64,000 bases of DNA, taken from Candidatus Latescibacterota bacterium. Lineage in GTDB: Bacteria; Latescibacterota; UBA2968; UBA8231. Each line of letters opens with the position of its first letter. Position 1 is the stretch's first letter. Made by a program: the position numbers and the translations under genes. The DNA is taken from the NCBI GenBank assembly GCA_965206595.1, contig OZ242214.1:2624001-2688000 (forward strand), read 5' to 3'. Below the pieces are notes generated by a model. It saw only the letters and a program-made list of their open reading frames with translations. It made no database searches and was not told the DNA's origin. Of the stretch, positions 1,900 through 34,263 are shown piece after piece.

Positions 1900-4800
1900 A
1901 TGCTGATCCGGCGACCGGGCATTCTGTGCCTCGTTTCCCTGTTCTCGATCCTCCTGCCCGACCGCTCCGGTGAGGCCCAGTCGCAGGCAACCACCGGGGT
2001 GATCCGCGGTTTCGTCCGGGACCAGTTCGGCAGCCCCGTAGCCGACGCAGCGGTCGCGCTCAAAGAGACCCGGACCAACTACGAGCGCACCCTCGTCTCG
2101 TCCGACCTCGGGCGGTTCACCGCGGCCTTGCTCCCTCTCGGCAACTACGACGTGACAGTGCAGGCACCCGGTTGGAGCGAACTGCGGAAAACAGGGATTC
2201 AGGTGCGGGTCGGCGAAACCGTGGAGCTGATCGTCAACCTGGTTCCGCAAATGGAGGAGGTAATCGTCGCAGCCGCCCTGCCCGCGGTGGACATAACCCA
2301 GAGCGAGGCGGCGACGCGGCTGCCGGAAGAGGCGGTTCGCGACCTGCCCAACAACGGCCGCAACTTCCTCAACCTGACCCAGCTGACCCCGGGGGTGGCC
2401 ATCGTCCAGGGCCCCGACGGGGACGAGCTCAGCATCGCCGGGCAGCGCGGCATTCACAACAACGTCTCCGTGGACGGGGCCGACTTCAACAACCCCTTCT
2501 TCGGCGAGCAGCGCGGCGGCCAGCGCCCGGCATTCACCTTCAATCTCGATGCGGTCGAGGAGATCGTGGTGGTGCCCCAGGGAGCCAACGCCGAGTTCGG
2601 CCGCTCCAGCGGCGGCTTCGTCAACGTCATCACCAAATCGGGGAGCAACGAGCTGCACGGCTCCCTGCATTTCTACGGCAAGAACGGGGCCTTGTCGGGC
2701 ACGGCGAGGCACGACGGACTGGAACGCGAGCCGGATTTCAGCCAGGGGCAGGCCGGCTTCACCCTGGGGGGACCTCTGCTGAGGGACCGGGCCTTCTTCT
2801 TCACAGCCTACGATCAGCAGCTGCTCAGGGACACCCGGCAGCAGGAAAGCGGGCGCATCGAGGGCCGGCTGCGCGCCTTCATGGACGCGCAGTTCGACGG
2901 GGCCCTGGCCGGGGACTACGGCCCCATCGACCGCACCGACGACGCCCGCGCCTTCCTCGCCAAGATCGATTTCCGCCTCTCCGACGATCAGTACGCCACC
3001 TTCAAATACAACTACACCTGGTCGGAGCAGGAGAACGGCACCTTCGACGTCGACTCCTGGGCCCGCAGCGCCAACGCCGTCGAGAGGGACTGGTCCCACG
3101 CCTTCAACGGCAGCCTGCTGTCGCTGCTCTCCTCGACAGCGACTAACGAGTTGCGCTTCCAGGTTTCCCGCGAAGACCGCCCGCGTCCCTACAGGGGGCC
3201 GCTCAACCCCGAAACCGGGCGGCCCTTCCCCGACACGGCCATGGACTTCCTCCACGGCTACCGCTTCGGCATGCCCTACTTCATCCCGGTCGAGTACTAC
3301 GACACCCGCATCCAGCTGCTCGACAACATCTCCGTTGCCAAGGGGGACCACCTGATCAAGGCCGGCATCGAGTGGAACCGGGTCGAATCGGTGCAGACCT
3401 TCATCGGCTTCGCCAACGGCCGCTACATCTTCAGCTCGACAGACGGCTTTCTCCGCTTCGTCGAGCAGGGGAACGGCTACGTCGAGTGCTCCGACGGCAG
3501 CACCGGCGCCTCCGGGGCCTGTCCCGACGGGACCGAGATCACCGGGCCGGTCCTCATCTACCTGCAACACGCCGGCGCCGGGGGGCTGACCGTGGAGGAG
3601 GCGGGCACCCAGGACATCCCGCAGCACGATCTGGCTCTGTTCGTTCAGGACAGCTGGAAAGCTTCGAGCAGGCTGACCCTCAACTACGGCTTGCGCTGGG
3701 AGGCGCAGATCCAGCCTGACGCCATCACCGATCCCGAGGAGGTGTTTTTTGCGGATTTCATCGGCCGGAAGGTGACCAACGAGACGGGCACCTACGAGTT
3801 CCCCTCCAACGGCAGGATTCCCTCGGACCTGGACATGTTCCAGCCGCGCCTGGGGGTGGCCTGGGATCTGCACGGCGACAACAGGACCCTGCTGCGCGGC
3901 AGCGCCGGGATCTACCACGCCCGCATCCCCGGCCTCAACCTCGCCGGCACACGCTCGACCAACGGCTCGCGCGGCCAGACGATCTTCCGCTCCAGCGCGC
4001 TGACCCCCGTTCTGGGGCCGCCGCCGACCTACGGAGAGCTATTGCCCACTCCCGCAGGCGATCCCTTCCGGCCCAACATCTTCGTCTTCGACCGGGATTT
4101 CCGGAACCCGCGGACCATCAGTCTGCAAGCGGCTGTCGAACGCGAGCTGCATGCCTCGGGACTGGTCGCTTCCTTCGGGTACACCTGGTCCCGGACCGAC
4201 CGGCTGACGCGCTTCGTCAACCGCAACGACGCGGTCTTCGGCTCTCCCTGGTCGACCGGCCTGGGGGCGGACGGCGGCAACGGCATCGGCGACCTTACCG
4301 TGGTCGAAAGCACCGCGGAGTCCCGCTACCACGGCCTCGGTTTCGGTTTGCGGCAAATGCTGGGGGAGGACCTGCAGTTCCAGGTCAACTACACGCTGTC
4401 GTGGGACAGGTCGGACGACGACAACGAGCGCGATCCCTTCACCTTCCGCTACGTCGACGCGAGCCGGCTCGACCGCGAGTGGGGCTACTCGAACCGCGAC
4501 CAGCGCCACCGCTTCAACGCCTGGGCCCTGGCGGCGCTGCCCGGCGGGTTCCTGCTCAACAACCGCCTGAGCTACTACTCGGCGCAGCCGGTCTCCGAAT
4601 TCTGCGGCGCCGGCAACCGGGGCTCGGGACAGCCGGCGGTCATCCCCTGGGGCGCCGCCTCCGACCGCATCTGCGGCGACGGCAGCATCCTCGCGCGCAA
4701 CACCCTGCGCAAGGAGAACGAGTCCTTCTCGTGGGACCTGCGCCTGTCGAAGCCCATCCGGATGGGCGGCGGCCGGCTGGAGGCCATCGTCGAGGTCTTC

Positions 4801-10476: not shown

Positions 10477-10743
10477 ATGAACGCACGCCGACACCGATCC
10501 TCCATTCTCCGCCGCCCGCGGATTCCCGGGGCGGCTGCTGCTTGCGGGCTCTTCGCCGCCGGCATCCTCCTGGCCCCGGGTACCGCGGCGGCCGCGGAGG
10601 AAACCGGCTTCATCCTCAACACCTTCTCGTTCCTCGTCTGGGGAGCCCTGGTGATGTGGATGTGCGCCGGCTTCACCATGCTCGAGGCCGGATCGGTGCG
10701 CTCCAAGAACGCCTCGATGATCTGCCTGAAGAACATCGGGTAG
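10477..10743 (+). pseudogene. amtB: Ammonium transporter N-terminal fragment, truncated by transposon end
   Basis: LVMWMCAGFTMLEAGSVRSKNASMICLKN; the stop codon lies inside the TIR that starts at 10739. Confidence 0.88.
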
Positions 10744-10787
10744 TGTGTCAATCTGAAATAAATGCTTACCCAATCCAGTGAACAAAA

Positions 10788-10816
10788 TTGACTAATAATC
10801 TGTATAAGCGTATGTT
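10788..10816 (+). promoter_or_regulatory. Sigma70-type promoter
   Basis: TTGACT-17 nt-TATGTT; predicted start site ~10823-10824 coincides with the 5' end of a long RNA stem. Confidence 0.6.
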
Positions 10817-10823
10817 CTCATTC

Positions 10824-10961
10824 GGGACAATGGCCGTTTTCGAAAACCCGACTTGGTCGGGTGCAGTGGGGAATACGATACCTGTTGGTACCGGACCAGA
10901 ACATCGCGTAACCGGAGCCAAGGGAATACCCATAGAACAGCCGGTAAACGGCCGTTGTTCC
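10824..10961 (+). ncRNA. Candidate structured ncRNA (four-way junction)
   Basis: 16-bp closing stem 10824-10839/10946-10961 (two G-U); hairpins at 10846-10862, 10874-10910 and 10911-10945. Confidence 0.55.
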
Positions 10962-11034
10962 AGCGCCCGGCCTGTCTCATGCGGAGACAGCCGCCATACC
11001 TCCCACTTGGGACTGGGGGGAAGGGGACAACGAA

Positions 11035-11601
11035 ATGAGGCGCATAATTGCAGTAGTGTTCGGATTGGCACTATGGGGATGTGGCGATCAGACCCTATCT
11101 CCGGTAGCGCCGAAGCTTGTAGCAGAGGGAGATTCAACGGCAACAGATGCAGGAAACAATGCGGCACAGTGCGTCGTCGTAAATATTCAGGGCGACAACA
11201 TCCAAGTTCACGGAGCCTCGGATGTGAACATCGATACGGTAGCCGTGTCCACGGTAACGGACACCGTCGTAGTCCAAGCAGGGTTTTCGATGTTGTTGTT
11301 GGAGTTCCAGGGCTACAATGACAACAGTCTGGACTGGGTCTCCAATAGAGAAGGGTGGACTTACTGGGATGAGAGAATCTCGGAAGAGTCCGTACGTGGC
11401 GTGTTTATGGCTACTACCGAATGGCTCGAAGCCCCGCCTGCAGATTGGACGCCGTTCGATTCCTTTCCAGATGTGCAGGAAGAACATGAATTGACTGTTG
11501 GGGATGGTTACATCTTCGTCAAAGACCCCCAACAGGAATTTCAGCGTTACAGCGAAGGCAGCACGAGGATGGGTTACTATTTGGGGATTGTGCTATTTTA
11601 G
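11035..11601 (+). CDS. Hypothetical lipoprotein (transposon cargo)
   Basis: MRRIIAVVFGLALWGC lipobox. Confidence 0.7.
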   Translation: MRRIIAVVFGLALWGCGDQTLSPVAPKLVAEGDSTATDAGNNAAQCVVVNIQGDNIQVHGASDVNIDTVAVSTVTDTVVVQAGFSMLLLEFQGYNDNSLDWVSNREGWTYWDERISEESVRGVFMATTEWLEAPPADWTPFDSFPDVQEEHELTVGDGYIFVKDPQQEFQRYSEGSTRMGYYLGIVLF

Positions 11602-11612
11602 TAGGCAATGTC

Positions 11613-11657
11613 TAAGGTGCTTGCAGGGCAACGGTCTTTCCTCCTGCAAGCACCTTA
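11613..11657. repeat. Perfect 15-bp inverted repeat
   Basis: TAAGGTGCTTGCAGG (11613-11627) / CCTGCAAGCACCTTA (11643-11657), 15-nt spacer, abutting AAGGAG RBS. Confidence 0.85.
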
Positions 11658-11676
11658 AAAAGGAGAAAAGCAAACC

Positions 11677-11901
11677 ATGCCTAAGGGACCGAATGGACAA
11701 ACAAGGCCAGCAGGGGTCACTCAGTGTGCCGTGCACGTGGCCAGGATTGCCATTGGCGAAATCGAGGACACTGGTTACAAGCATCCTGTCCAAGCAGAGA
11801 ATGGAAGCAAGGGCGGGAAGGCTCGTGCTTCCATTCTGACGCCTGAGCGGCGTAGGGAAATTGCCAAGGCTGCTGCTGAAGCTCGATGGAAGACAACTTA
11901 G
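11677..11901 (+). CDS. Small basic protein of the type commonly found beside IS1-family transposases
   Basis: RBS AAGGAG; GSKGGKARASILTPERRREIAKAAAEARW motif. Confidence 0.75.
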   Translation: MPKGPNGQTRPAGVTQCAVHVARIAIGEIEDTGYKHPVQAENGSKGGKARASILTPERRREIAKAAAEARWKTT

Positions 11902-11904
11902 TTT

Positions 11905-12234
11905 GTGATTAATGAGGAAGGAAAAGAACGACAATTGATTTACGCCATTATTTCCCTCGACAACGAGAAATCAGAAGAAATCCATGAAGCAATTGCCAGC
12001 ATTAAATCGACTATCTCAGCTGAAACCGCAACAAAAAAATTCCGCCAAGTACAAAGCATTTATCAGCCTAATGACTTGCGTCATATCAGCTTTATAGCAT
12101 TTTCCGGCAGCGTAAATGAACTGTGCGACTTGCTTGGACTAATTGAAATAAAGCACCTTGCAGTTGCCTTAAGTCATATCGGAGGCAGGGGGTCAACCGA
12201 ATTGGTTAATTGGATAAAGGCATATAATGGCTGA
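11905..12234 (+). CDS. Hypothetical protein (cargo)
   Basis: Open AT-rich ORF packed between neighbours. Confidence 0.55.
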   Translation: MINEEGKERQLIYAIISLDNEKSEEIHEAIASIKSTISAETATKKFRQVQSIYQPNDLRHISFIAFSGSVNELCDLLGLIEIKHLAVALSHIGGRGSTELVNWIKAYNG

Positions 12235-12505
12235 CGGACAGGAGTTTGGTGGGGGGACAAAGAAGCTTACTGAAGGCGGAAGGGTCAATATAGAACTTAT
12301 TGAGCATCGGGTAAATGAAATCGCTAACGACACAAAACAGCAAGGAAAAGAAATCAATTCGATCAATATAATTGTCACAGAGATTAAGACGGGGATGATT
12401 ACGAGAAAGGAGATTTTTACAACTGGAGTTATCATTATGGCAAGTCTTTTGATCGCTGTTTTTGCAGCGTTCGTTGCCATTTTCTTTCAGAAAATAACCG
12501 CATAA
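12227..12505 (+). CDS. Hypothetical protein with coiled-coil-like segment and C-terminal TM helix
   Basis: Overlaps upstream stop; hydrophobic GVIIMASLLIAVFAAFVAIFF tail. Confidence 0.6.
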   Translation: MADGQEFGGGTKKLTEGGRVNIELIEHRVNEIANDTKQQGKEINSINIIVTEIKTGMITRKEIFTTGVIIMASLLIAVFAAFVAIFFQKITA

Positions 12506-12508
12506 CCC

Positions 12509-13414
12509 TCACGAAAACACCAAATCCTCGTCGTTGTAATCTCTTTCTCGCTTCTTGTATTTCTTCGGACGCTTTGGCTTCGGCGTCCGCTTGTCGATCA
12601 GCCCCACAATCCATTCCAGGCTCTTCTCTTCCTTGGTCAGCCCCGCTGCAACTGCTGGTGTGGTTTCAAGAGTCATGTGCGGCCGTACCCAGTTGTAGTA
12701 GGTGAAGAATAGGTGGAGCATATACCTGTGGTTCTCAAGTTTCTTTGAGAACCCGTTTGTCTTTCGTGTATAGCGGCGCATACCCATACGCATGGTAAGG
12801 TTCATGCGCTCAACGTATGATGTGCCCCCTTCTTCGCTGTCGCCGATAACGATCACCTTTTCGGTTTCCGTTACGGTGGAGTTGCTATATCCTGCTCCAT
12901 CGTCGTACCCGTACGACTTCACAAGTTGGGTATAGTTGACGCGGTTCCCGAATGTACTATGGACAGCCTCGGGGTAAGCGCCAAAGGCATCGGATGTGAT
13001 TTGGACCTTGGGTTTTCGGGGCAGGATGATCTTCCCCTTCAACTTACCCATGAAGCGTTTGGCCGTTGTCAGGTTCCTGCCACCAACTTCCCAAGCAATC
13101 ATCAACTTGGTGTCGGGATCGAGTGCCGTCCATGTCCAAATGCTTCCAGCCTGAGAAGGCGCGGCTTGCGCTTGCGGGACATTCTTCTCTTTGGCATGGA
13201 GAAATGACCATATTTCATCCAATTCTACGCGCGCACACCTGATTCGGCGTGCATGCACTGCCTCATAGATGCTGCAAGCCTTCCCCGCATCTACGAGCAG
13301 TTTTACCACCGAATTGACAGCACAATCAGCCGACCTGGATATGGAGCGGATCGATGCACCTTCTACCAGCATGGAGAGGATGGTAACTCGTTTATCTATT
13401 GACAGTTGTTTCAT
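12509..13414 (-). CDS. IS1-family DDE transposase
   Basis: N-terminal HTH (EGASIRSISR), VELDEIWSF, WTALD, ITSD, TSYVERMNLTMRMGMRRYTRKTNGFSKK; ATG 13414 after AAGGAG. Confidence 0.88.
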   Translation of the reverse strand: MKQLSIDKRVTILSMLVEGASIRSISRSADCAVNSVVKLLVDAGKACSIYEAVHARRIRCARVELDEIWSFLHAKEKNVPQAQAAPSQAGSIWTWTALDPDTKLMIAWEVGGRNLTTAKRFMGKLKGKIILPRKPKVQITSDAFGAYPEAVHSTFGNRVNYTQLVKSYGYDDGAGYSNSTVTETEKVIVIGDSEEGGTSYVERMNLTMRMGMRRYTRKTNGFSKKLENHRYMLHLFFTYYNWVRPHMTLETTPAVAAGLTKEEKSLEWIVGLIDKRTPKPKRPKKYKKRERDYNDEDLVFS

Positions 13415-13492
13415 TTCGTTGCTCCTTGACGTTAGTGAACAAAAAGGATACATTTATACACTATCAAAGGCCGAGGCATAGAAATGCCTCGT

Positions 13493-13584
13493 TGGCGGCG
13501 AGGGTGGGATTCGAACCCACGATGCCTCTCCCGAGACATGCCTGATTATAAGTCAGGTGCGTTTATCCACTCCGCCACCTCGCC
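13493..13584 (-). tRNA. tRNA with UAU anticodon (reads Ile AUA) on a serine-type class II body
   Basis: GGCGAGG/CCTCGCC acceptor stem, G73, encoded CCA, anticodon arm CCTGA-CTTATAA-TCAGG, 7-bp variable arm ATGTCTC-GGGA-GAGGCAT, T arm GTGGG-TTCGAAT-CCCAC. Confidence 0.93.
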
Positions 13585-13625
13585 CTTTGTCCCGCCGATT
13601 GCAGTCGGCGGTGATTCTTCCTGCT

Positions 13626-13657
13626 ACGGCGTCCCGCCAATCTCGGCGGGACGCCGT
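13626..13657. repeat. Perfect 13-bp hairpin in the tRNA leader region
   Basis: ACGGCGTCCCGCC-AATCTC-GGCGGGACGCCGT; a second hairpin CCGCCGA-TTGCAG-TCGGCGG lies at ~13592-13611. Confidence 0.8.
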
Positions 13658-13750
13658 TCTGTTTTTACCTGAACATAAATATACGAAATTTTCTGCTTAG
13701 CCGGAAGGGATTTCTCCCCAGGTTGGTTTACATAATGTGTCGATCTGGAC

Positions 13751-13789
13751 AAAAAAGAACCCGGCTCTTCACTGAGAGTCGGGTTCTTG
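13751..13789 (-). terminator. Rho-independent terminator of the SLATT-like gene
   Basis: AAGAACCCGACTCT/AGAGCCGGGTTCTT stem followed by a T run on the minus strand, just after the stop at 13808. Confidence 0.7.
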
Positions 13790-13807
13790 CGAGTGGAAGC
13801 AAGGATT

Positions 13808-14332
13808 TTAGACTGACTGACTTTCCTGTGCAACAAGAGTGTGAGGTCGGATGTCCCATAGCTGCTTGAATAGCCTTTGGTACCAACTCACCTTGGGAAA
13901 CTCACTTGGGTCGTTGCCCTGCGCTCGCATCATTTCAATATGACAGACTATATCCAGCACACGGAGTGGCTGAGGCTCCCTTGACTCGATGGCCAGCCGT
14001 TGTGCTGTGATGTCGGCCAGGAACCCTTGCAGATCGTCATCCTGCAAGTTTCTGCTTCTTTCCATCTGTTGTTGAAGTTGAATGAAGCCCTGCTTGAGTT
14101 CTCCGTGCAGCAAGGCTTTTTCGTTTACCCTGAAGACGAGCATGAATCCTAAAAGAGCAGCACTTGCCACAGAAATCGCATGGTGGCCTTCTATTACGGC
14201 ATAGATAGACAGCATAAAGGCGCCAAATAGAAACCAGTTATGCGCGGCCCTGAGAAAGGATTCGCGGTACGTATGATACCGAATAGATCGGCAGATGCCG
14301 AAATGGAGATTGTGGTAAACTGTGTCAGTCAT
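13808..14332 (-). CDS. SLATT-like two-TM protein
   Basis: RSIRYH..R..F, two TM helices, EKALLH..LK..F..L helical C-terminus; ATG at 14332. Confidence 0.6.
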   Translation of the reverse strand: MTDTVYHNLHFGICRSIRYHTYRESFLRAAHNWFLFGAFMLSIYAVIEGHHAISVASAALLGFMLVFRVNEKALLHGELKQGFIQLQQQMERSRNLQDDDLQGFLADITAQRLAIESREPQPLRVLDIVCHIEMMRAQGNDPSEFPKVSWYQRLFKQLWDIRPHTLVAQESQSV

Positions 14333-14513
14333 TTCCCTTCTTTTTTGGTGGGGGAGCCGGAGGTAATGTGTCGGAGATTGGCTCGGGGGCAATGTCGTCC
14401 CTAACTGCTCTCTTTTCTTGTTCCTCCGTGAGGATTTTTCTTTCTGTATCTGGCCGAGAAGGTGCAGGCTGCGTATCGGGTTTGGGTTCGGATGATCTGC
14501 GCTTGGATGCCAT
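14325..14513 (-). CDS. Small Pro/Lys-rich peptide overlapping the start of the SLATT-like gene
   Basis: 62 aa ending PPAPPPKKKGND; stop overlaps downstream start. Confidence 0.5.
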   Translation of the reverse strand: MASKRRSSEPKPDTQPAPSRPDTERKILTEEQEKRAVRDDIAPEPISDTLPPAPPPKKKGND

Positions 14514-14754
14514 TTCCCTTTTTCCTTAGTTCAATGACTGCTGAGACTGTTCACCCGGAAAATACTGAAAGCCTGCAACGGTGCAAAGAAGTTTCCTCTC
14601 CCCAGTCCCCCAAGGGGATTATTGGAGGGGTTAGCCCTCAATTCTGGGTGGGCGATCCGTCACCAGAAATGGTGACAGAATTTCAGACTGATACACTACC
14701 CCGCATTCTTGGTCAGCACCTGCACCTCATCTTACGGACCTTCTCAACATCCTT

Positions 14755-15132
14755 GGTGGGAAGGAATCGAACAAGCATCAGGACAAGAAGCTGAACGCCG
14801 GACGCGGGACCGTCGGCAAGCAGGCGGTCGTCGGGATCCGCAATCGCAAGACGAAGGAGATCCGGGCGGAGCTGGTCGGCGATACCAAGGCCGACACCCT
14901 GCAGAGCTTCGCGGCCGATTTCGTCGAGCAGGAAGCCGTCAAGTACACGGACGAATCACCGTCCTACGGGGGCATGAAGAACCACGCCAGCGTTAGCCAT
15001 TCCACCGGTGAGTACGTTCGCGAGATGGCCCACATCAACGGGATGGAGTCCTTCTGGGCCACGTTGAAGCGAGGCTACGCCGGAACCTTCCACCGTCGGC
15101 CGGCGAATTCATTAACGGACTTAATCCAGTAG
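14755..15132 (+). pseudogene. IS1595-family transposase internal fragment
   Basis: Not in the ORF track; frame from 14755 reads GGKESNKHQDKKLNAGRGTVGKQAVVG...YTDE...VSHSTGEYVREMAHINGMESFWATLKRG. Confidence 0.85.
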
Positions 15133-15528: not shown

Positions 15529-16119
15529 TTGGCGCGTAGAGCGGATCAAACGAAAGGCGTCTTTTGCCTTGAAACGCATAAGTGGTTTAACAGGAAGGAT
15601 GAGACCACGATTGAGCCCATCCTGGATCTACTGCGAAAACAGCAGGGGAGGAATTGGTCTTACCGCTACCGAGATGTCGCTACGGAAGCTGAATTCCGGT
15701 TCTTTCTTGGGGAATACCTGACACCCATATACGATAGCTTTCCCGTTCTGTACCTGGGATTTCATGGCGAAAATGATAGCATTATCCTTGCGGACAAAAC
15801 GGTCATGTCGCTGGACCGAATCCGACTCGCAATAAATGGCCGGTGCAATGAGCGGGTAATATACTTCGGTTCCTGCGGCACCATGAGCGTACATGGCAAA
15901 CGGCTGAAGTCGTTTTGCAAATCGACTGAGGCGCTAGCCGTATGCGGATTCAAGGAAGAAATCGATTGGTTGCAGGGGGCGGCCTTCGAGCTTCTTATCC
16001 TGGGAACGCTTCAGAGCGTGCCGTTTACTAAGGAGGGGATGGAAGAATTCGACCAACGCCTGAAGGCGCAATCGCCCGGTCTATACAGAAATCTCGGGTT
16101 CCGCTTGGAGACGGCCTGA
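15529..16119 (+). CDS. DUF6642-like protein (caspase/CHAT-like His-Cys pattern)
   Basis: GVFCLE, IEPILDLL, LYLGFHG, IYFGSC, VCGF...DW. Confidence 0.65.
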   Translation: MARRADQTKGVFCLETHKWFNRKDETTIEPILDLLRKQQGRNWSYRYRDVATEAEFRFFLGEYLTPIYDSFPVLYLGFHGENDSIILADKTVMSLDRIRLAINGRCNERVIYFGSCGTMSVHGKRLKSFCKSTEALAVCGFKEEIDWLQGAAFELLILGTLQSVPFTKEGMEEFDQRLKAQSPGLYRNLGFRLETA

Positions 16120-16184: not shown

Positions 16185-17095
16185 TTCGGAAGCCTATCGC
16201 ACAACCAAGCGCGTGCGCCGGCCCGAGGGGCAGGGGCTGAACGATCCCTACGTCAGATTCTTCCGCATGGCGGAACGGCGCATCGCCGAGAAGACGGGCC
16301 AAGGCGTGGTCTGTTTCATCTCCAACTATATCTGGCTCGACGGGCTGTCCTTCACCGGGATGCGGGAGCGCTACCTCGAAGCGTTCGACGCCATCCGCGT
16401 CGACTGCCTGAACGGCGACAAGTACAAGACCGGCAAAGTGGCGCCTGACGGCTCCCCGGACCCGAGCATCTTCTCCACCAAAGGCGATCCAGTCGGTATT
16501 CAAGTCGGAACTGCGATTACGACGCTGGTACGCAAAGCCGATCACGCCCCGGCCACCGAGATCGGCTTTCGCCATCTCTGGGGACAGGCCAAGCCTGCGG
16601 AGTTGACGGCGACAGCGGAGAAGGAACCGGACGCGCTCTACGACTCCATCGAGCCAGTCTTGCCGCTTGGTTTGCCGTTCGCACCAACTGCTGCAAGCGA
16701 GGATTGGTTCGGCTGGCCGGCGTTGCCAGATCTGTTCCCGGTTTCGTTTCCGGGCGTCAAAACCAGCCGCGACGGATTCCTTGTCGATACCGATCTGGAC
16801 CGCCTCAAGGCGCGCATTACCGAATACTTCGACGAAACTCTGAGCCACCATGAGATCGCCCGGCGCTACCCGGCGGTGATGAAGAGCACGGGACTATTTA
16901 ACGCCCGTGCGGTGCGCGATGCGCTGCTAGAACGGGGTGGACCGAATCGATTCTGGATTCATCCGCTTCGCCTATAGGCCGTTCGACAATCGCTGGCTCT
17001 ATTGGGAAGGGGAGAGCGCCCTGCTTGACCGCCCCCGCCTCGACTATCAACCGCATGTGTTCGGGGGGAATTTGTGGCTGTCTGCCGCCGAATCG
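16185..17095 (+). pseudogene. Type ISP-like restriction-modification enzyme fragment (MTase C-part/specificity domain)
   Basis: LNDPYVRFFR.AERRI, GVVCFISN..WLDG.SF.GMR, GIQVGTAI, YRPFD.RWLYW; frameshift ~16945; truncated at both ends. Confidence 0.8.
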
Positions 17096-17226
17096 GCCCC
17101 TCAATACGTCCGTCCGAAGCCGAAACGATGGCCGACTCCAGAGTTTCAGGACGGTGGTTCACGAACTCCTGGATCCACCCGGAGGCTTCCGCGTTCTCCG
17201 CGTTTCTGGGGGTACCTGGACATTAC

Positions 17227-17480
17227 CTACTCCCCATCCTGTCCGCGGGGAAGTCGTCCGCAAACAAGGAAGGAAAAGTCGGGCAGGTTCACCCAATCGT
17301 CCCGATTGAGATCAAATTGCCGGGGGGTGGTCCCGAAGGCGTCGGCGAATAGGAAGAAGTCGGCCAAATCCACATGGCCATCCTGGTTGAAGTCCGCCTG
17401 GGTCGGCCAAGTAAGCCCGGATTCTATCCCGTCCGTCACGGTGGCCACGTAGCCCCACTGGGCCAGAACATACTCCGGTC
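17227..17480 (-). pseudogene. Dockerin/EF-hand-like C-terminal remnant of a secreted protein
   Basis: ADFNQDGHVDLADFFLFADAFG...FDLNRDDWVNLPDF. Confidence 0.6.
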
Positions 17481-18354: not shown

Positions 18355-19730
18355 CCGGACCCTGCCCCGTTTCCACACCCCGTTCATCGAACCCAGCGGG
18401 CGGGTTTCCCGCACTGGGCTCTCGGACGAGATCATGCCTTCGCCCACGGAAAGCGGGTCGTGCGCGGTCCAAGGCGAGTCAGCCCGTGGTCTTGCCACAG
18501 GTACCGGTCCGGGAAGCGCACGTATTTCCCGCCTCCCACCTTGTGCTTACGACACAGCCACTGGCGCAACCGCCGGGTCGCGTGCCGGTCCACCGCGGCG
18601 TAGGCCGGGCTCACTTGGCCCAGGATGAAGTAGTTCGCCCACCCGGTCATGAGCCGGTTGAGGCGACCTACCACCACCTCCGGGGCCAGCAGTCCGGATC
18701 CCCGCGCGGTCAGCTCGCTGAGCCGGCGGCAGAGGCTTCGGACGCTCGCCGCGCTCGGGCGCGTGCCCAAGTAGGCCCGACCCGTGTCCCGGCGATAGAT
18801 GCGTCCGATCCGGTAGCCGAGGAACTCCATCGCCTCCTCCGGCACCCGGTAGCATCGGGTTTTCTCGGTGTTTATCGGCAGTCTCAGTTGCGCCATGAGC
18901 CGCTCGACCGCCGCCCGCATCGTGGCGGACGGGGCTTGGCCGAGCGCCCGGACGTCATCGGCGTACACGACGATCTCCGTCTGGAAGCGCCGGGCATAGC
19001 CCCGCACCTTCCAGCCGAGAATGAAGCGACGCAGGTAGATGTTGCTGAGCAGCGGAAAGATCGGCGCCCCCTGCGGGGTCCCTTGGCGCTCTCGACGCGC
19101 CCGGTTCGTGCGGCGGGTGCCGCCTTCCCCGTCGTCTTCCTCTACCGCCATCTCCAACCACGCCTTGATCCAGCCCAGCAGGCGCCCGTCGCTGAGGCGG
19201 CGGGCCAGGGACTTCATCAATTCCGCGTGGGGGATCTGGCCGAAGTAGTCCGACAGATCCGCGTCGACCACCTCCCGGTGGCCCGTGTTCAGCAGCCGAT
19301 GCACGCGCTGAACGGCGTCCAGCGCGCTGCGGCCCGGTCGATAGGCATACTGTCCGGGGGCAGGTCCGCTTCGAAAATCGGCGACAACACCATCATCGGC
19401 GCCGTCTGCGCTACCCGATCCCGGAGACAAGGGATGCCCAAGGGCCGGTACTTCCCACGTTGCTTCTTCGGAATCAGGACCTGCCGTACCGCCTGCGGCC
19501 GGTAGGTCCCTTCCTTCAGGTCCCGCGCCCGTTCCCCAAGCCACCGCTCCACTCCGTACGACTCGACGTCCGCTACCGTCTTGCCGTCCACCCGGCGGCG
19601 CCGCCATTACCGCGGACCTCCTGCCAGGCGACGGCCAGTACATCGGCGCGCCACACCTTGTCGCACAGCGAGTAGAATCGGAAGCCGGGAGCTTCCTTCG
19701 CTTTGGCATGTAGCGTCGTCTGGAAGCGTG
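18355..19730 (-). mobile_element. Degenerate group II intron: frameshifted RT/maturase plus domain V and partial domain VI
   Basis: AKAKEAPGFRFYSLCDKV, RPLGIPCLRDRVAQ, GTPQG, YADD, GWANYF in shifting frames; DV GAGCCCAGTGCGGGAAACCCGCCCGCTGGGTTC at ~18389-18421. Confidence 0.88.
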
Positions 19731-19731
19731 A

Positions 19732-19800
19732 TAGCCGGCGTAGTCCATTTTATCCCGGTTGTTGCGGGCGTAGCCCAGTTCGGTGGTCGCCTGGGGATGG
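19732..19800 (-). mobile_element. Short transposase-like remnant (ISKra4/ISLre2-like)
   Basis: ELGYARNNRDKMDYAGY abutting the truncated intron. Confidence 0.4.
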
Positions 19801-20330
19801 CGCGGTTGACCAGGTCGGGAGACTATGAGACAGATCGTTCGACACCTCGACATACTTCGGACCCTGCAAGCCCAGCGCCACGGTATGAATTTGGAGGAGG
19901 TCGGGTTTCTGCTCGACCAAACCCGGCGGGACGACCAGCACGTCTACTACCAGCTACAGAAAGAGGCGGGGATGCCGCTGAACTTTCCTGTCATGGTCGC
20001 GTCGATGCGCCCACGATGACATCGCCACTTCCACCAGTTGCGGCGCACGTTCAGGACCGACTTCATCGTCAAGCGCAACCTGCGCCCCCCAAATCGAAGT
20101 AGACCTGGCTCGAGGAGCTAACGACCACAAAGGAGCTTACCTGCCTTGACAGAGGGCTAAGAAGGTGCCTCCTTTCCCCAATATACCGGTCGGGTCTAAA
20201 GGGCTTCGGTCAAGCCGGGAACGCCGATGCAGGCTTGGAAGCTTTGTTGCAGGTGTGGGCGATACGGCCGTTTACGTCGCGGCGATCTAGGCGGACGACC
20301 TCGCCGCCGCCAGCGTAGGATCATGCTCTT

Positions 20331-22605: not shown

Positions 22606-23532
22606 CTAGCTGCGGAAGGGGATGAATCTGTGAGGGCTCTTCTGCCAGTTACAGAGAGCGTCCTCCAAGACCTGCATCCCGAGATTCAACTCGGACCCTA
22701 ATTCGACCAGCCACTGGTTGATTTGGGCTGGTGTTGCAGGGGTTCCGAACAAGAGACGGGCGCCCCGGATCGGGCCAGTCGAATTCTGAATGTACGGGGA
22801 GTCCGCCTCAACATTGGCTAGTCCTAACTTGCCTAACATGGTCAAATAGTCGAATCGAGCGGTCCTACCGAAACTAGCGATTTGCTCCATGCTGTGGTAA
22901 AGCTCACGGAAGGCCACCCGTGGAGACCCACGGGCATTCTGGAGGACTTGGTTCATTAGTCCCTCGTGGGTTCTGGGAGGCCCAACCCACTGAACATATG
23001 TTTGAACGGCGGCGCCAGTTCCGGTGGGGGAGTATGCATCGAGGCTTTGATACTTTCGATGGTTGCCAAACCCACCGGAGATTCTCAATGCATCTTGGTG
23101 GGAGGCTAACCACGCTCGAAAGCGGGCTGGATCGGCACTTGTGGTAGCCCAATCCCATCTGTGAGGTCCCCCAAGAGCGCCGTATACTTCGCGCGCATAC
23201 CGCCAGCCGCCTCGTTTATGTTTTCCGAAATGGACGAGGAAAAACACCATCCAGAAGGCTTCCTCCGTTTGGCCTTGGCGGTGAAAAACGATTGCGGCCC
23301 TCAGAGGGTCAAAATAGCCAGGATTAGAGGGTTCTGAACGACGTTGGGAAATGTCCCTTGTTCTGAGGACCGACACGAATCGGACGCGCCTTGTGCTCTC
23401 GATGACCTGGGCGACAAAGGATTCACGATGCGCGAGGTCTGCCAAGCCTAGAAGTTGGCGGCTATGCCGGTGAAACGCAGCTAACTGGTGGGAAAGTCGC
23501 TGCGCTGCGTGGCGGTCACGGGGCCTAATCAT
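22606..23532 (-). CDS. Alpha-glutamyl/putrescinyl thymine pyrophosphorylase clade 3-like protein
   Basis: FDPLRAA, FGNHRKYQSL, FGRTARFDYL, GPIRGARLLFG, LEDALCNWQKS; ATG 23532 overlaps upstream stop. Confidence 0.75.
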   Translation of the reverse strand: MIRPRDRHAAQRLSHQLAAFHRHSRQLLGLADLAHRESFVAQVIESTRRVRFVSVLRTRDISQRRSEPSNPGYFDPLRAAIVFHRQGQTEEAFWMVFFLVHFGKHKRGGWRYAREVYGALGGPHRWDWATTSADPARFRAWLASHQDALRISGGFGNHRKYQSLDAYSPTGTGAAVQTYVQWVGPPRTHEGLMNQVLQNARGSPRVAFRELYHSMEQIASFGRTARFDYLTMLGKLGLANVEADSPYIQNSTGPIRGARLLFGTPATPAQINQWLVELGSELNLGMQVLEDALCNWQKSPHRFIPFRS

Positions 23533-24356
23533 TCCCTTTCCTCGATCATCCGGGCGATCCAATCGCCGATTGCGAGAATGACCTCCTTTGTGACGCCAAA
23601 ACTGCTCTGAAGGTTATGGTTAAAGCCGAGAATAGAAAGATCGCGGTCAAGGGGAACCCCGCAAACGTCACTTATAACGCCTGTATAAGCGATACCTTTC
23701 ACCTTGTGACCTGAAGCTCTTCCTAAAAACCAATCTGGGACGACTTCTGCTGTCAGGCAAGACCCCGAAAGAGATTGGAAACCCCTTACGACGGAAGTGC
23801 CATTTAGGATTAGAGTCCGAACCGAGGAATCCCGAAGAATAGTAGCCAGGGTGTCTCCAGCTAGGGTAAGGAGTAGGGAGCGCTGTTGGTTAGGGAGATC
23901 CGCCCATTTGCTTAGTGTTGCATAGGGTACTAGATCTAGATGGCAAGCGTTAAATAGAGGTGGATAGTAGGAGACTCTAGCACCCCTAAGTATTGAGTCC
24001 AGCTTTTTGAACCAGACATCATAAGGATTGGAGGCAAAATAAGATCGGTAAGACTCAAGAATCGATTCAAGATGCCTAGCGTCGGCATCAGCCCAAGTCT
24101 GTAACCCCAGGGAGGCAAGGGTTGGAAATCTGCGGAGTTCTCCCTTCAACTCATTACCTGAGGCATCCATGAATTCCCGGGAACTAGGATTAATACCTAT
24201 AGTTGCTAGCTGGGGAGTGGACAAATCTCCGAAGGAAATAACCGGACAACTCCAAGGTATGATGCCGGCCTGAGTAGTCGTAGGCCTGTCGAGGTAATCT
24301 ATCAACTTGGCTGCGGCCGAAAGCACCCCATGAGGAGTCCGCCTAGGGGAGATCAT
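23529..24356 (-). CDS. Hypothetical protein, probable uracil-DNA-glycosylase-like fold
   Basis: PVISFGD...LATIGINPS..EF, HLDLVPYAT..W, LILNG. Confidence 0.55.
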   Translation of the reverse strand: MISPRRTPHGVLSAAAKLIDYLDRPTTTQAGIIPWSCPVISFGDLSTPQLATIGINPSSREFMDASGNELKGELRRFPTLASLGLQTWADADARHLESILESYRSYFASNPYDVWFKKLDSILRGARVSYYPPLFNACHLDLVPYATLSKWADLPNQQRSLLLTLAGDTLATILRDSSVRTLILNGTSVVRGFQSLSGSCLTAEVVPDWFLGRASGHKVKGIAYTGVISDVCGVPLDRDLSILGFNHNLQSSFGVTKEVILAIGDWIARMIEERE

Positions 24357-25084
24357 GTTAAGCGATTCATGTTAAGCGGTTATGGAGTCTGGTAATGTAA
24401 GGGTGGTAGACCTCTGAAGACATTTCCCCTTTTAGGTGTGAAATCTTCTTAAGATTATGGTCTTTGTAAGCTCGAAAGACCAAGAGCAGCCTAATGAGAT
24501 CGGACCAGTAAGAGGGTATAGTGTCAAGGGTGTTTGAGTCAAATTGCCCTTTAATCCTGATAGCGCGTTCTGCGGCGAGCACGAGGTCAATTGCTGCCTG
24601 GGGGTTTCCTTCGGGCATAGGCTCCATCACGTTCTGGGTAGGTTGCCAGCCCTCTTGGAGGAACCTTGTGGCCATTTCCTCATTTTTTGTGTACAAGTGG
24701 AGACTGCCGACCATGTGTTTATATCTCCCGAGGTTTGCAGAGAGAGTGCGGGCGATGATTTCCTGGATCATGGTAAAACAGAAAATGTCGTGAGGTAAAC
24801 CAACGTAAGCGTCGTTAGACCTCATGTGGGTAATCATCTGAAGGTGGTTGCGTCGGAGCATGAATTGGAGAGTACAGGTACACGGAACGTCCTTGTGTGG
24901 TACCAAAAGGTCATTTGCATCGAACAATTGAACTACCGCTTGTCGGGATTGGGGTTTCCGACGAAGAATAGTAACTACATTCTCAAACTGATTGAGCCCG
25001 CGCCAGTTGAATAGTCTTGGGCCGTAGCCACCAAAGAGCGTGGTTCCTTCTGCGTGCAATTTATAATCGGGGATGTAGTAGGAT

Positions 25085-26944
25085 CCTTTGTTATTCATTC
25101 AACCCGCGCATAAGCGGACATAGGCGCTTCCGAGACCCCTTTGCTTAGCCTCAGAGGCTTGCGTCCCTTCTATAGTCGGCTTTTTGGGTAGAGCCGTCTC
25201 CTTATCTCTACCGACCTTGTTGAAATTGTACGCGCCTTCTCGAAGACGCTTGCCTTTGCGAGCCCATCATCCCGACCGACCCGGCCTGCGCTTACGCCAT
25301 CGCCGCGTCCACCGGTTTGAGCGTGGCCAGAAATCTCCACAGACGATCCCAGGCAGCCGCCGTCCCTTGGGTCAGGATGACGCCCACCCTGCGCCCATGC
25401 AAGGTGACGCGGGACGGCAGGCGCAGGTAGCGCCGTCGAAAACTGTCCAGGCTCAGGGCCGTCGTCGAGCGTCCGTATGTGCGGGGCCGCCCGCGTCGGG
25501 CCTCGGCGCGTTCGGCGGCCTGGCGGCCCAGGTGAAGCAGGTTGTAGGCCAGCAGGTTCAAGGTCAGAAGCGCCTGGTTGGCAGCGAAGGCATCCCGGGA
25601 CGGGGTGCGCTGACGCGGCTCTCGACCCCGGTAGTGTTGCTTGCGACGGGTGGTAGAGGAGAGCTGAGGCTGGAGGGTGGAGCTCAACTCGCCGAGCATG
25701 CGCTCGAAAAGGCCGCGCTGACGATAAAAGGCGACCAGGTCGCGGCCGCTCATCGTCTGGGGACTCTGGTCGGTGATCAGGAAGAAGTGGCGGGCGATGG
25801 GCAGCTCTTCCGTCTCGGAAGGGACCAGGACCAACACCACCCGCCGGGGCTGCGCCCAGGACCTGGCTTGATAGCGCAGCTCGCGACAGCGAAAACCCTC
25901 TTCCCGCAGCTCTTCCGGGTGCTGCGCCAGCTCCTGCTGATAGCCTTCCACCCAGGCACGAGCCAGCTCCTCCAGGCGCGCATTCTTCTTGATGCGCGCC
26001 ACGTACGAGGTGTCGGCCCGCGCTTCCAGCTCACTCAGGAAAGACCCGCTCACCGAGGCCGCGTCGAAGCGCAGGATGAGGCGCCGGGCCAGATGCGACT
26101 GAATCCAGTCCAAGCGCTTGCCGAGAGCCTCTGAGGCGCCCTCATGGGCGTGCACGTTGCCCGGCCGCAGCACGGCACCGAAGAAATCGCCCGTCTGCGC
26201 CGAGCCGAGGAGCAGGGGATGGTACCCCGAGGCGTGGAAGTAGCCGTTGTATTCGACCCCCGCCTGGTGCCCGTGCGCCGGCATCGGCAGGGCATCCATG
26301 TCGACGGCCAACTCCTCGTATTTCATCCGTCCTTCCAGCAGCCGGCAACGAGACCGGGCGCTGCGCAGGACGGCTTCCTCCAACACCTCGCGGTTATAGG
26401 CAGTCGAGGCTTGCTCGAGCAGGCGCGACAGCGTCGGCTGACTGGCCAGTCCCTGCGGCCGGTCTTCGTCGCCGCTGCGCAACGGCGCCTGCCCTTTGCG
26501 ATCGCTGACCGCCAGACGCAGGATCGGATCTTGGCGCAACGCGTCGGCGTCGTCGGCGTGGGTCCAGCCCTGTGCCAGCAGCACGATCTGTGTGCGCAGC
26601 AGCTCCGGCAGCGGGTGCGTGATCTGGTCTTGGGTACGGAGATCCTCGAAGTGGGCGTCGACCCAATCCAGAACCCGGCTGTGTTCGAGCAGTTGACGCA
26701 ACATCAGCGCACCGGTGTCGCTGCCAAGGTGGGTGGGGCGGGCTTCGATGTGGATGGAGCGGTTGAAAGACGGCTGAATCGGCCCGGCTTGCTCGGACTC
26801 GGTGTGTGACGGTAATTCACCCATTGGGTGTCCTACTGTGTGATGGGTTCAAAGGGCGATACTGCCTTGTGTTTCCCTCTGAAATCTAAGCATGGGAGGC
26901 ACCCAGTACAGCCCTCTCCACTAAAATTCCATGAATAACAAGGG
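25085..26944 (-). mobile_element. IS1380-family element, copy 1 (1860 bp, intact)
   Basis: TIRs CCTTTGTTATTCAT / ATGAATAACAAGGG; 5-bp TSD AGGAT (25080-25084, 26945-26949). Confidence 0.92.
25292..26824 (-). CDS. IS1380-family transposase
   Basis: GSDTGALMLR, LASQPTLSRL, VDMD, HGHQ...YNGYF...YHPL, LRFDA, FYRQRG..E. Confidence 0.9.
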   Translation of the reverse strand: MGELPSHTESEQAGPIQPSFNRSIHIEARPTHLGSDTGALMLRQLLEHSRVLDWVDAHFEDLRTQDQITHPLPELLRTQIVLLAQGWTHADDADALRQDPILRLAVSDRKGQAPLRSGDEDRPQGLASQPTLSRLLEQASTAYNREVLEEAVLRSARSRCRLLEGRMKYEELAVDMDALPMPAHGHQAGVEYNGYFHASGYHPLLLGSAQTGDFFGAVLRPGNVHAHEGASEALGKRLDWIQSHLARRLILRFDAASVSGSFLSELEARADTSYVARIKKNARLEELARAWVEGYQQELAQHPEELREEGFRCRELRYQARSWAQPRRVVLVLVPSETEELPIARHFFLITDQSPQTMSGRDLVAFYRQRGLFERMLGELSSTLQPQLSSTTRRKQHYRGREPRQRTPSRDAFAANQALLTLNLLAYNLLHLGRQAAERAEARRGRPRTYGRSTTALSLDSFRRRYLRLPSRVTLHGRRVGVILTQGTAAAWDRLWRFLATLKPVDAAMA

Positions 26945-34253: not shown

Positions 34254-34263
34254 GGAGAAGTCC

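Follow-up and report, generated by a model that had tools for sequence, protein, structure and literature searches.

The element described here, 3,962 bp at 10739-14700 of a 64,000-nucleotide stretch of contig OZ242214.1 from a Candidatus Latescibacterota bacterium (the window, meaning the whole stretch that was analysed), is probably a rearranged member of a subgroup of cargo-carrying, or "transporter", insertion sequences (IS) of the IS1 family, with a serine-type tRNA bearing the anticodon UAU as cargo. Between two 21-bp terminal inverted repeats, which matched each other at 19 of 21 positions, it contained the transposase gene, six further open reading frames (ORFs) and one tRNA gene. The transposase lay in the centre, on the strand opposite to the left-hand genes and between two converging gene sets. 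An earlier note on this DNA, made from its letters alone, had proposed the repeats, a single IS1-family transposase, its central position, a tRNA and a terminator-like hairpin followed by a T run. All of these were borne out, the repeats as the only two consensus sites in the window, the transposase by a Pfam match above the cut-off and by the names of its homologues, and the tRNA by both ARAGORN and Rfam.

The element is real and its boundaries are correct. Both arms fitted the repeat consensus of the earlier note with 0 mismatches, and no third site was present in the window at three or fewer mismatches, for which 100 shuffles gave an expectation of 0.00. Measured against GGTAGTGTCTCAGTTTGAA, the consensus of the related elements, the left repeat had three mismatches and the right repeat two. 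Both ends began with GGTAGTG, as did the sites in 18 of 22 related loci, and both repeats carried the variant CTGAAAT in place of the TTTGAA of the relatives. The content of guanine plus cytosine (GC) was 0.50 in the element against about 0.65 on its left flank, and it was uneven between the modules of the element, falling to about 0.42 at 12000-12600 compared with about 0.50-0.55 elsewhere. The check for other copies in the host genome (7.05 Mb, one contig) found none intact; besides the present copy there was one 44%-identical fragment broken by two stop codons. On account of the GC contrast, the element was counted as foreign. A Logan contig of run X1, which is probably the source sample, spanned both junctions with 0 differences. 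In runs from two other studies the element appeared as short, identical pieces at low depth, which carried no information on the junctions. Loose ends at 10739 were considered as evidence of excision and rejected, as they represented amtB of other organisms at 85-95% likeness. An apparent extension of the arms to 31 nt (81%; 10729-10738 and 14701-14710) was also discarded: the AAGAA in amtB has its mirror image beyond the right repeat by chance, and the left 10 nt are ordinary amtB sequence in relatives.

The transposase was encoded by one uninterrupted ORF of 301 amino acids (aa), with an AAGGAG ribosome-binding site 7 nt 5' of its ATG. It scored 34.3 bits against the Pfam model DDE_Tnp_IS1 (PF03400; cut-off 24.1) and 69.8 bits (E 2.8e-19) against the NCBIfam model transpos_IS1 (NF033558), the latter under the cut-off of 100. 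Among 8,000 proteins scored, 7,870 were homologues at E<=0.001, many of them named "IS1 family transposase"; the best non-self sequences were 80% (P0002) and 67% identical, and the others reached at most about 56%. D66, D142 and E202, which we take to be the catalytic residues, were invariant columns in an alignment of 10 sequences. Scans with the transposase recovered 22 related loci, 11 from species-representative genomes and 11 from JGI metagenomes, whose transposases were 28-52% identical to that of the window; the viral contigs scanned in the same way gave no match. The hosts of these loci comprised Alphaproteobacteria, other proteobacterial metagenome-assembled genomes (MAGs), Planctomycetaceae, Thermoguttaceae, an Actinomycetota MAG and a Methanomassiliicoccaceae archaeon.

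The earlier note had named a search for its repeats beside homologous transposases as a test. A site within four mismatches of GGTAGTGTCTCAGTTTGAA was found in 18 of the 22 loci, at both ends of the transposase region in 10, and the terminal repeat common to the relatives read GGTAGTG(T/G)(C/G)TCAGTTTGAA. All 10 complete relatives were flanked by 8-bp direct repeats, nine of them perfect and one (L014) at 7/8. These elements measured 2,103-5,401 bp and bore cargo, which lay inside the target duplications. Since the 8-bp duplications flank whole units, the related units transpose whole. Our results suggest a mechanism in which the single-ORF DDE transposase would recognise repeats of about 20 bp (GGTAGTG..TCAGTTTGAA) and move the whole unit of 2-5 kb, generating 8-bp duplications.

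Elements of the IS1 family have ends that start with GGnnnTG and produce target duplications of 8-9 bp. Classic IS1 is about 0.77 kb long and has two frames, insA and insB', joined by a -1 frameshift, whereas the present group has one 301-aa ORF with no insA/insB' arrangement, a separate 74-aa basic gene and 2-5 kb of cargo. The single ORF therefore fits the single-ORF subgroups and not classic IS1. Insertion sequences with passenger genes are called "transporter IS" (Siguier, Gagnevin & Chandler 2009, as cited in the relevant passage of PMC3129680). The transporter IS of the IS1 family are alike in having an IS1-type DDE transposase, 8-bp duplications in the relatives and passenger genes inside the repeats; the present copy differs in its central, inverted transposase and its tRNA. 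By these sequence features, the element is assigned to the IS1-family transporter IS, within a broad subgroup. In the literature, with ISfinder entries outside the comparison, no description was found of the shared repeat, the 8-bp duplication and the partner gene of this subgroup, which is widespread but poorly described.

The partner gene encodes the 74-aa small basic protein. A small basic protein had been listed in the earlier note and was present, but its role as a conserved partner had been missed. In tblastn and homologue-profile searches of 24 loci (the 22 related loci and two plasmid regions), the gene lay upstream of and co-oriented with the transposase in 17. Among the other seven, in four the contig extended less than 350 nt beyond the transposase on its upstream side, L005 contained the partner motif only within a larger ORF on the opposite strand, and L006 and L024 had no partner gene by the profile search. 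In the minimal elements L008, L013 and L020 the partner preceded all other genes, and its start lay 75-77 nt inside the left end. The protein had 1,151 homologues at E<=0.001, mostly unnamed and with no Pfam domain among the 120 listed, and its conserved core read MPKGP..RPAD..A..VA.IATGE....GGKARA..LTPERR.EIA..AA.ARW. AlphaFold2 predicted three helices with a confidence (pLDDT) of 83 and a pTM of 0.38. No Pfam or NCBIfam match was obtained, the PHROG match was only partial, searches of the PDB by sequence gave nothing under E 0.97, and Foldseek against the PDB gave nothing at E<=0.001. On the annotated Acidiphilium and Hoeflea plasmids, the partner appeared as a "hypothetical protein" beside an "IS1 family transposase". 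It is a candidate for a regulatory, DNA-binding role. The C-terminal motif of the partner also recurred near the N-terminus of P63C proteins in the cargo of relatives.

In the canonical layout of the subgroup, the left repeat was followed by an inward promoter, a basic protein of 72-80 aa, variable cargo and the transposase, with all cargo upstream of the transposase. In 9 of 10 complete relatives, 9 nt separated the end of the transposase ORF from the outer edge of the right repeat, the stop codon lying inside the repeat, and the C-termini read ..SN or ..SK; the exception, L011, had a frameshifted transposase gene and a gap of 244 nt to the end. In the window, the last 12 residues of the transposase diverged from all nine aligned relatives (9/9), and a repeat scan found no repeat-like site near the transposase stop. 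The C-terminus of P0002, ..KKN, would be compatible with the usual repeat-encoded end, as far as the protein by itself can tell. The gene order of this copy, which the earlier note had not recognised as derived, is read as derived and atypical. The transposase block (62-aa ORF, protein with two transmembrane (TM) helices, terminator, tRNA and transposase) would be inverted relative to the left block, and the native 3' end of the transposase gene together with its right repeat would have been lost. Such an arrangement may have originated by internal inversion of the transposase block or by tail-to-tail fusion of two left-end halves. The reading "ISD-stop" beside the right repeat was considered as a remnant of the transposase C-terminus and rejected, for it is encoded by the repeat itself; it occurs at the left repeat as well and does not separate inversion from fusion.

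A rival explanation is that the 3,962 bp are two independent partial elements, both left-end halves, which abut by chance and never moved as a unit. We regard this as unlikely, though it accounts for several features. Read inward, both halves resemble the left end of the family followed by co-oriented genes, no right repeat is present at the transposase stop, no target duplication was found, and the GC content dips at 12000-12600. On the other side, the convergent stops of the 92-aa ORF and the transposase were only 3 nt apart with both ORFs intact, and the two repeats, besides their close identity, shared the CTGAAAT variant that relatives lack. Moreover, two such ends with one transposase would still constitute a mobilisable unit.

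The left flank consisted of the first 88 codons of amtB, cut by the element. In two same-genus genomes, G001 (95%) and G002 (88%), the match to the left flank extended up to window position 10740, where their intact amtB continued in frame past the junction (..KNIG|LYAIAG..), and the left junction was the outer end of the repeat to within 2 nt (GG) common to both sequences. Synteny with these genomes resumed at window position 34254, and the intervening DNA was about 8.0 kb in G001 and 7.5 kb in G002, compared with 23.5 kb here. The flanking 8 bp, GAACATCG on one side and CCGCATTC on the other, shared 3 of 8 positions, which means no target duplication. No 3' part of amtB adjoined the element; five other Amt matches in the genome came from four other amt genes elsewhere (one was matched in two pieces), and none of these genes was the missing half. 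Taken together, the truncation of amtB, the absence of a target duplication and of an amtB 3' half beside the element, and an adjacent deletion, all suggested in the earlier note, agreed with the comparison, in which about 8 kb of same-genus DNA was replaced by 23.5 kb. The element lies at the edge of a 23.5-kb mobile mosaic, which took the place of about 8 kb of ancestral sequence and with it the remainder of amtB. Its flanks had never adjoined each other, which explains the missing target duplication; with a duplication in all complete relatives, its absence here was attributed to the rearranged flanks. Deletion of adjacent DNA mediated by IS1 is established, and we infer an IS-associated adjacent deletion or rearrangement at this site.

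The tRNA, by all structural signs, is a real and canonical one with a serine-type body, a character that had escaped the earlier note. It matched the Rfam tRNA model with 64.8 bits (E 9e-13), and ARAGORN agreed on a gene of 92 nt. The minimum free energy (MFE) fold was a cloverleaf whose acceptor and extra-arm stems had 7 bp each and whose anticodon and T stems had 5 bp each; the 7/5 configuration of the acceptor and T stems was found in the Rfam alignment as well as in the MFE fold, and all 27 pairs were standard. The anticodon loop CUUAUAA gave the anticodon UAU, which is not an anticodon for serine codons. Among 50,697 phage records, the best full-length match was an annotated tRNA-Ser(ACU) of a Rhizobium phage (79.6% over 92/92 nt), and the best among plasmids and chromids was a Ralstonia tRNA-Ser(CGA) called by ARAGORN (78.3% over 92/92 nt). 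The anticodon stem was identical in the element tRNA and both tRNA-Ser genes. Compared with either, the element tRNA kept every pair, and both bases departed from the commonest pair at acceptor 3:70, a D-stem pair and one extra-arm pair (three sequences, hence weak statistics). Stems that stay paired despite such double changes speak for a tRNA that is maintained and not for a decaying copy. The discriminator was G73 as in host tRNA-Ser, whereas host tRNA-Leu and tRNA-Tyr have A, and the D-loop and the 20-nt extra region resembled host tRNA-Ser and not tRNA-Leu or tRNA-Tyr. Host tRNA-Ile(GAU) and an Ile-like CAU tRNA, of 75-77 nt and with A73, were unlike the 92-nt element tRNA with its G73.

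No tRNA was found inside any of the 10 complete related elements, or within the element at any of the 22 related loci, so tRNA cargo, the frequency of which the earlier note had proposed to check, is not a trait of the family. In L009, a Thermoguttaceae MAG, a tRNA-Arg(TCG) lay at 3051-3125, 134 bp outside the left repeat. A search pattern for a UAU tRNA with a long extra arm, which fixes the T-loop sequence and so misses variants of it, was present in 1 of 168 genomes of the host phylum, the host's own; none of 5 genomes with related elements had it, and none of 401 from the phylum to which G171 belongs. The lineage therefore does not have this tRNA as a chromosomal gene; the earlier note had named a chromosomal locus in relatives as a refutation, and this test came out in its favour. 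The possibility of a host chromosomal gene beside a chance repeat was rejected in the same sense, as the same-genus genomes are without the whole segment. In IMG/VR, the same pattern occurred on at least 120 contigs (L044-L163; e.g. L053:2824-2913 and L050:3681-3772). In the first 80 of these loci ARAGORN called "tRNA-Ile(tat)" of 85-94 nt in 66, with a D-arm of 4 bp and 4 nt. These tRNAs, which by eye had an 8/4-like acceptor/T branch and represent a different, allo-tRNA-like family, were unrelated in sequence to the window tRNA, and the 120 loci showed no match to the element's proteins and were not beside IS1-type genes. The exact anticodon-arm pattern matched 97 stretches in IMG/VR, of which 96 were not tRNAs.

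Two known kinds of tRNA invite comparison. Allo-tRNA(UAU) combines serine-type identity features with a UAU anticodon (Mukai et al. 2017, PMC5389517), and in soil bacteria it is reported to be associated with transposon-related genes and toxin-antitoxin loci. Allo-tRNAs are defined there by 8/4 or 9/3 acceptor/T branches. Compared by that description, the element tRNA differs in its canonical 7/5 configuration and normal tRNA-Ser D-arm, and an allo-tRNA identity was rejected for it on its 7-bp acceptor and 5-bp T stem. The nematode nev-tRNA-Ile(UAU), as outlined in PMC4300185, is alike in its class II body, its UAU anticodon and a possible non-cognate decoding of AUA; it is eukaryotic, chromosomal and leucine-type, whereas the present tRNA is bacterial, transposon-borne and serine-type.

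It is plausible, although our confidence falls somewhat short of even, that the element tRNA acts as a serylated decoder of AUA. The element ORFs contained 12 AUA codons per 1,000, compared with about 2.6 in host ORFs (about 4.5-fold), the host figure being drawn from a crude set of 1,508 long ORFs with a third-position GC (GC3) above 0.75. The anticodon plays no part in recognition by seryl-tRNA synthetase (SerRS), and by default one would expect this tRNA to carry serine and to read AUA. The tRNA would then be serylated and decode AUA, giving low-level ambiguity from isoleucine to serine at a codon rare in the host. The host also had TilS (172 bits) and the CAU tRNA with an Ile-like body, which implied that AUA is already decoded in the usual way and that the element tRNA would be a supernumerary AUA reader.

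Several points weigh against our explanation, in both its parts. The element is a single copy without target duplication; with its transposase having lost the native C-terminus and the overlap with the repeat, the copy may be immobile. The relatives at 80% and 67% identity are known from proteins alone, and the comparison of layouts rests on relatives of 28-52%. The AUA-rich genes of the element speak against tolerated serine decoding: one AUA codon specifies transposase residue Ile68, which was invariant across the 10 aligned sequences, and an exchange of isoleucine for serine would damage the element's own transposase. The promoter scan found no convincing promoter for the tRNA. Finally, Mukai et al. 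(PMC5389517) report that in E. coli six of the allo-tRNA-UAU variants lacked activity after conversion to CUA and that two were lethal.

Two other functions of the tRNA were weighed. In the first, the tRNA would act outside translation, as a hitch-hiking or decaying copy of tRNA-Ser or as an element for processing or stability of the transposase transcript, and the whole element would be an immobile relic. The single copy, the missing target duplication and the lost native 3' end of the transposase gene are all in keeping with this, as are the absence of a tRNA from the 22 related loci and the position of the tRNA 79 nt upstream of the transposase gene in the same orientation. Its four stems and extra arm, in contrast, are fully paired, also where both bases of a pair have changed; like most host tRNAs, the gene encodes its CCA, and random decay would not be expected to leave two anticodon substitutions in a body that is intact elsewhere. 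We consider this account unlikely, if still worth keeping in mind. In the second, the tRNA would be a codon-supply gene: it would accept isoleucine in spite of its class II body and raise the translation of AUA-rich genes of the element within a GC-rich host, the role presumed for phage-borne tRNAs. The excess of AUA and its use at the invariant Ile68 would suit such a role, and so would the loop CUUAUAA with A35, U36, A37 and A38, which are major determinants for isoleucyl-tRNA synthetase in E. coli; but the body shares 78-80% identity with tRNA-Ser genes, we know of no tRNA-Ile that has a long extra arm, the discriminator is G where host tRNA-Ile and the Ile-like CAU tRNA have A, and the host already possesses TilS and a tRNA of the Ile2 type, and this role is improbable.

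A bolder version of serine decoding is that an active, serylated missense tRNA(UAU) competes with the lysidine-modified tRNA-Ile2 of the host and renders AUA ambiguous between isoleucine and serine, for mobile defence or self-regulation; we give it slender credence. If it were true, proteins of phages and plasmids could be corrupted preferentially, AUA being rare in the 65%-GC host and common in invaders of lower GC, and by way of the AUA at Ile68 the tRNA could also hold down the transposase of the element itself. An insertion sequence would then carry defence or self-regulation of a new, tRNA-based kind.

Table 1. Features of the element and its surroundings, in window coordinates (TM, transmembrane; HMM, hidden Markov model)
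Feature	Position	Strand	Evidence or remarks
Left flank, amtB truncated by the element after codon 88	10477-10738	+	Pfam positions 3-38 of 399
Left terminal inverted repeat (IRL type)	10739-10759	+	GGTAGTGTGTCAATCTGAAAT; followed by promoter-like inward site
Sigma-70-like promoter TTGACT-17-TATGTT	10788-10816	+	9/12 consensus positions; 50 nt inside left repeat
Leader of lipoprotein gene, about 220 nt, putative structured RNA	10812-11034	+	Folding energy
188-aa acidic protein, signal-peptide-like N-terminus ending in GC	11035-11601	+	Probable lipoprotein
Perfect 15-bp stem-loop with 15-nt loop	11613-11657	+	Between lipoprotein and small basic genes; no T run after
74-aa small basic protein, conserved partner gene of IS1 subgroup	11677-11901	+	tblastn, HMM
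109-aa ORF	11905-12234	+	Weak phrog_38154 match, 3.5e-4; GC about 0.42-0.45
92-aa protein, one C-terminal TM helix	12227-12505	+	Residues 68-86, hydropathy 2.98
IS1-family single-ORF transposase, 301 aa, intact frame	12509-13414	-	Pfam, NCBIfam
Class II tRNA, serine-type body, UAU anticodon, CCA encoded	13493-13584	-	ARAGORN, Rfam
Two similar GC-rich hairpins, tRNA 5' leader	13592-13667	.	13592-13611; 13626-13657 plus strand
Intrinsic-terminator-like hairpin	13755-13788	-	14-nt arms, 93% complementary, then T run; after 2-TM gene
174-aa protein, two adjacent hydrophobic helices	13808-14332	-	phrog_11791
62-aa proline- and lysine-rich ORF	14325-14513	-	8-nt overlap with 2-TM gene start; no family match
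Right terminal inverted repeat	14680-14700	-	Reverse complement GGTAGTGTATCAGTCTGAAAT
IS1595-family transposase internal fragment, open from first base after repeat	14701-15132	+	NF033547
DUF6642 protein	15529-16119		
Split Type ISP restriction-enzyme fragments	16213-17452		
Group II intron reverse transcriptase/maturase ORF	18432-19853	-	RVT_1 + GIIM
Thymine-hypermodification-type cassette	22606-25098	-	Inside 23.5-kb mosaic

The remaining cargo and signals of the element are listed in Table 1. The promoter proposed in the earlier note stood only as a consensus match; TTGAC-type and TA...T hexamers were located at a similar offset behind the left repeat in L008 and L013, and weaker ones in L020. 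The leader of the lipoprotein gene folded with an MFE of -91.6 kcal/mol (z -3.21 against shuffles) and a long closing helix. It had no Rfam match at E<=1 and no homologue in 23 loci (L002-L024) or elsewhere in the genome. The structured RNA claimed for this region thus relied on folding energy, and of the plural "RNA genes" attributed to the element only the tRNA was verified; the translation-altering or defensive function put forward for them in the earlier note is hypothetical. The 188-aa protein, probably a lipoprotein, matched nothing in Pfam, NCBIfam, PHROG or PADLOC. A search of 1.84 billion representatives gave only 11 proteins at E<=0.001, and two of these, of 103 and 84 aa and at 100% identity, covered parts of the protein itself. 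For the 92-aa protein, sub-threshold matches were obtained to phrog_1193 "hemolysin" (6e-3) and WXG100_2 (4e-3). The larger hairpin in the 5' leader of the tRNA formed 13 pairs followed by TCTGTTTTT and reads as an intrinsic terminator of the plus strand, which could stop left-arm transcripts after an antisense run through the transposase gene.

The 174-aa protein matched phrog_11791 over its full length (1.1e-24) and was 35% identical over 95% to gp19 of BcepMu and gp49 of phiE255, conserved hypothetical proteins upstream of the phage lysis cassette with no link to SLATT. It is assigned, from these similarities, to the BcepMu gp19 family. The label "SLATT-like", given to it earlier, was dropped: no SLATT Pfam model matched at E<=10 and nothing in PADLOC at E<=0.1, and the architecture of two hydrophobic helices fits SLATT proteins without being specific to them. 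In the relatives, the cargo included P63C-domain proteins (L004:4825-6117(-), L009:4871-6094(-) and L005:1693-2772(-)), a STAND NTPase (L007:4545-5810(-)), an SDH-type ClpP-like protease (L041:3749-4705(-)) and an XRE-M78 peptidase regulator (L042:3756-4943(+)), and by these predicted domains it looks defence- or phage-like.

To the right of the element, the mosaic began with the internal fragment of an IS1595-family transposase, which matched NF033547 at positions 76-194 of 215 (E 4.5e-22) and had no further copy in the genome. The genes listed in Table 1 followed, together with another IS and an Mrr-like nuclease. The segment 20519-21142 was present as many repeats in the same-genus genomes. 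The cassette related to thymine hypermodification comprised an aGPT-Pplase3/ADDT gene (5e-96), a 275-aa ORF without family match and a thymidylate-synthase-like gene.

These findings bear on the IS1 family as well as on tRNAs. The subgroup to which the element is assigned is large and crosses domains, from Alphaproteobacteria and Planctomycetes to an actinobacterial MAG and a Methanomassiliicoccaceae archaeon, with one shared repeat and one shared partner protein. The partner is a candidate regulator of transposition that annotation pipelines leave "hypothetical", and the defence-like cargo of the relatives suggests that these elements may shuttle small defence modules. Transporter IS are a kind already known, and the tRNA-Ser-like UAU gene is the most unusual cargo found here. 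Transposon-borne and structurally intact, a tRNA-Ser body that bears an isoleucine anticodon extends the observation of allo-tRNA(UAU) to a tRNA of canonical 7/5 form whose mobile boundaries are defined, and represents a natural candidate for mobile codon ambiguity.

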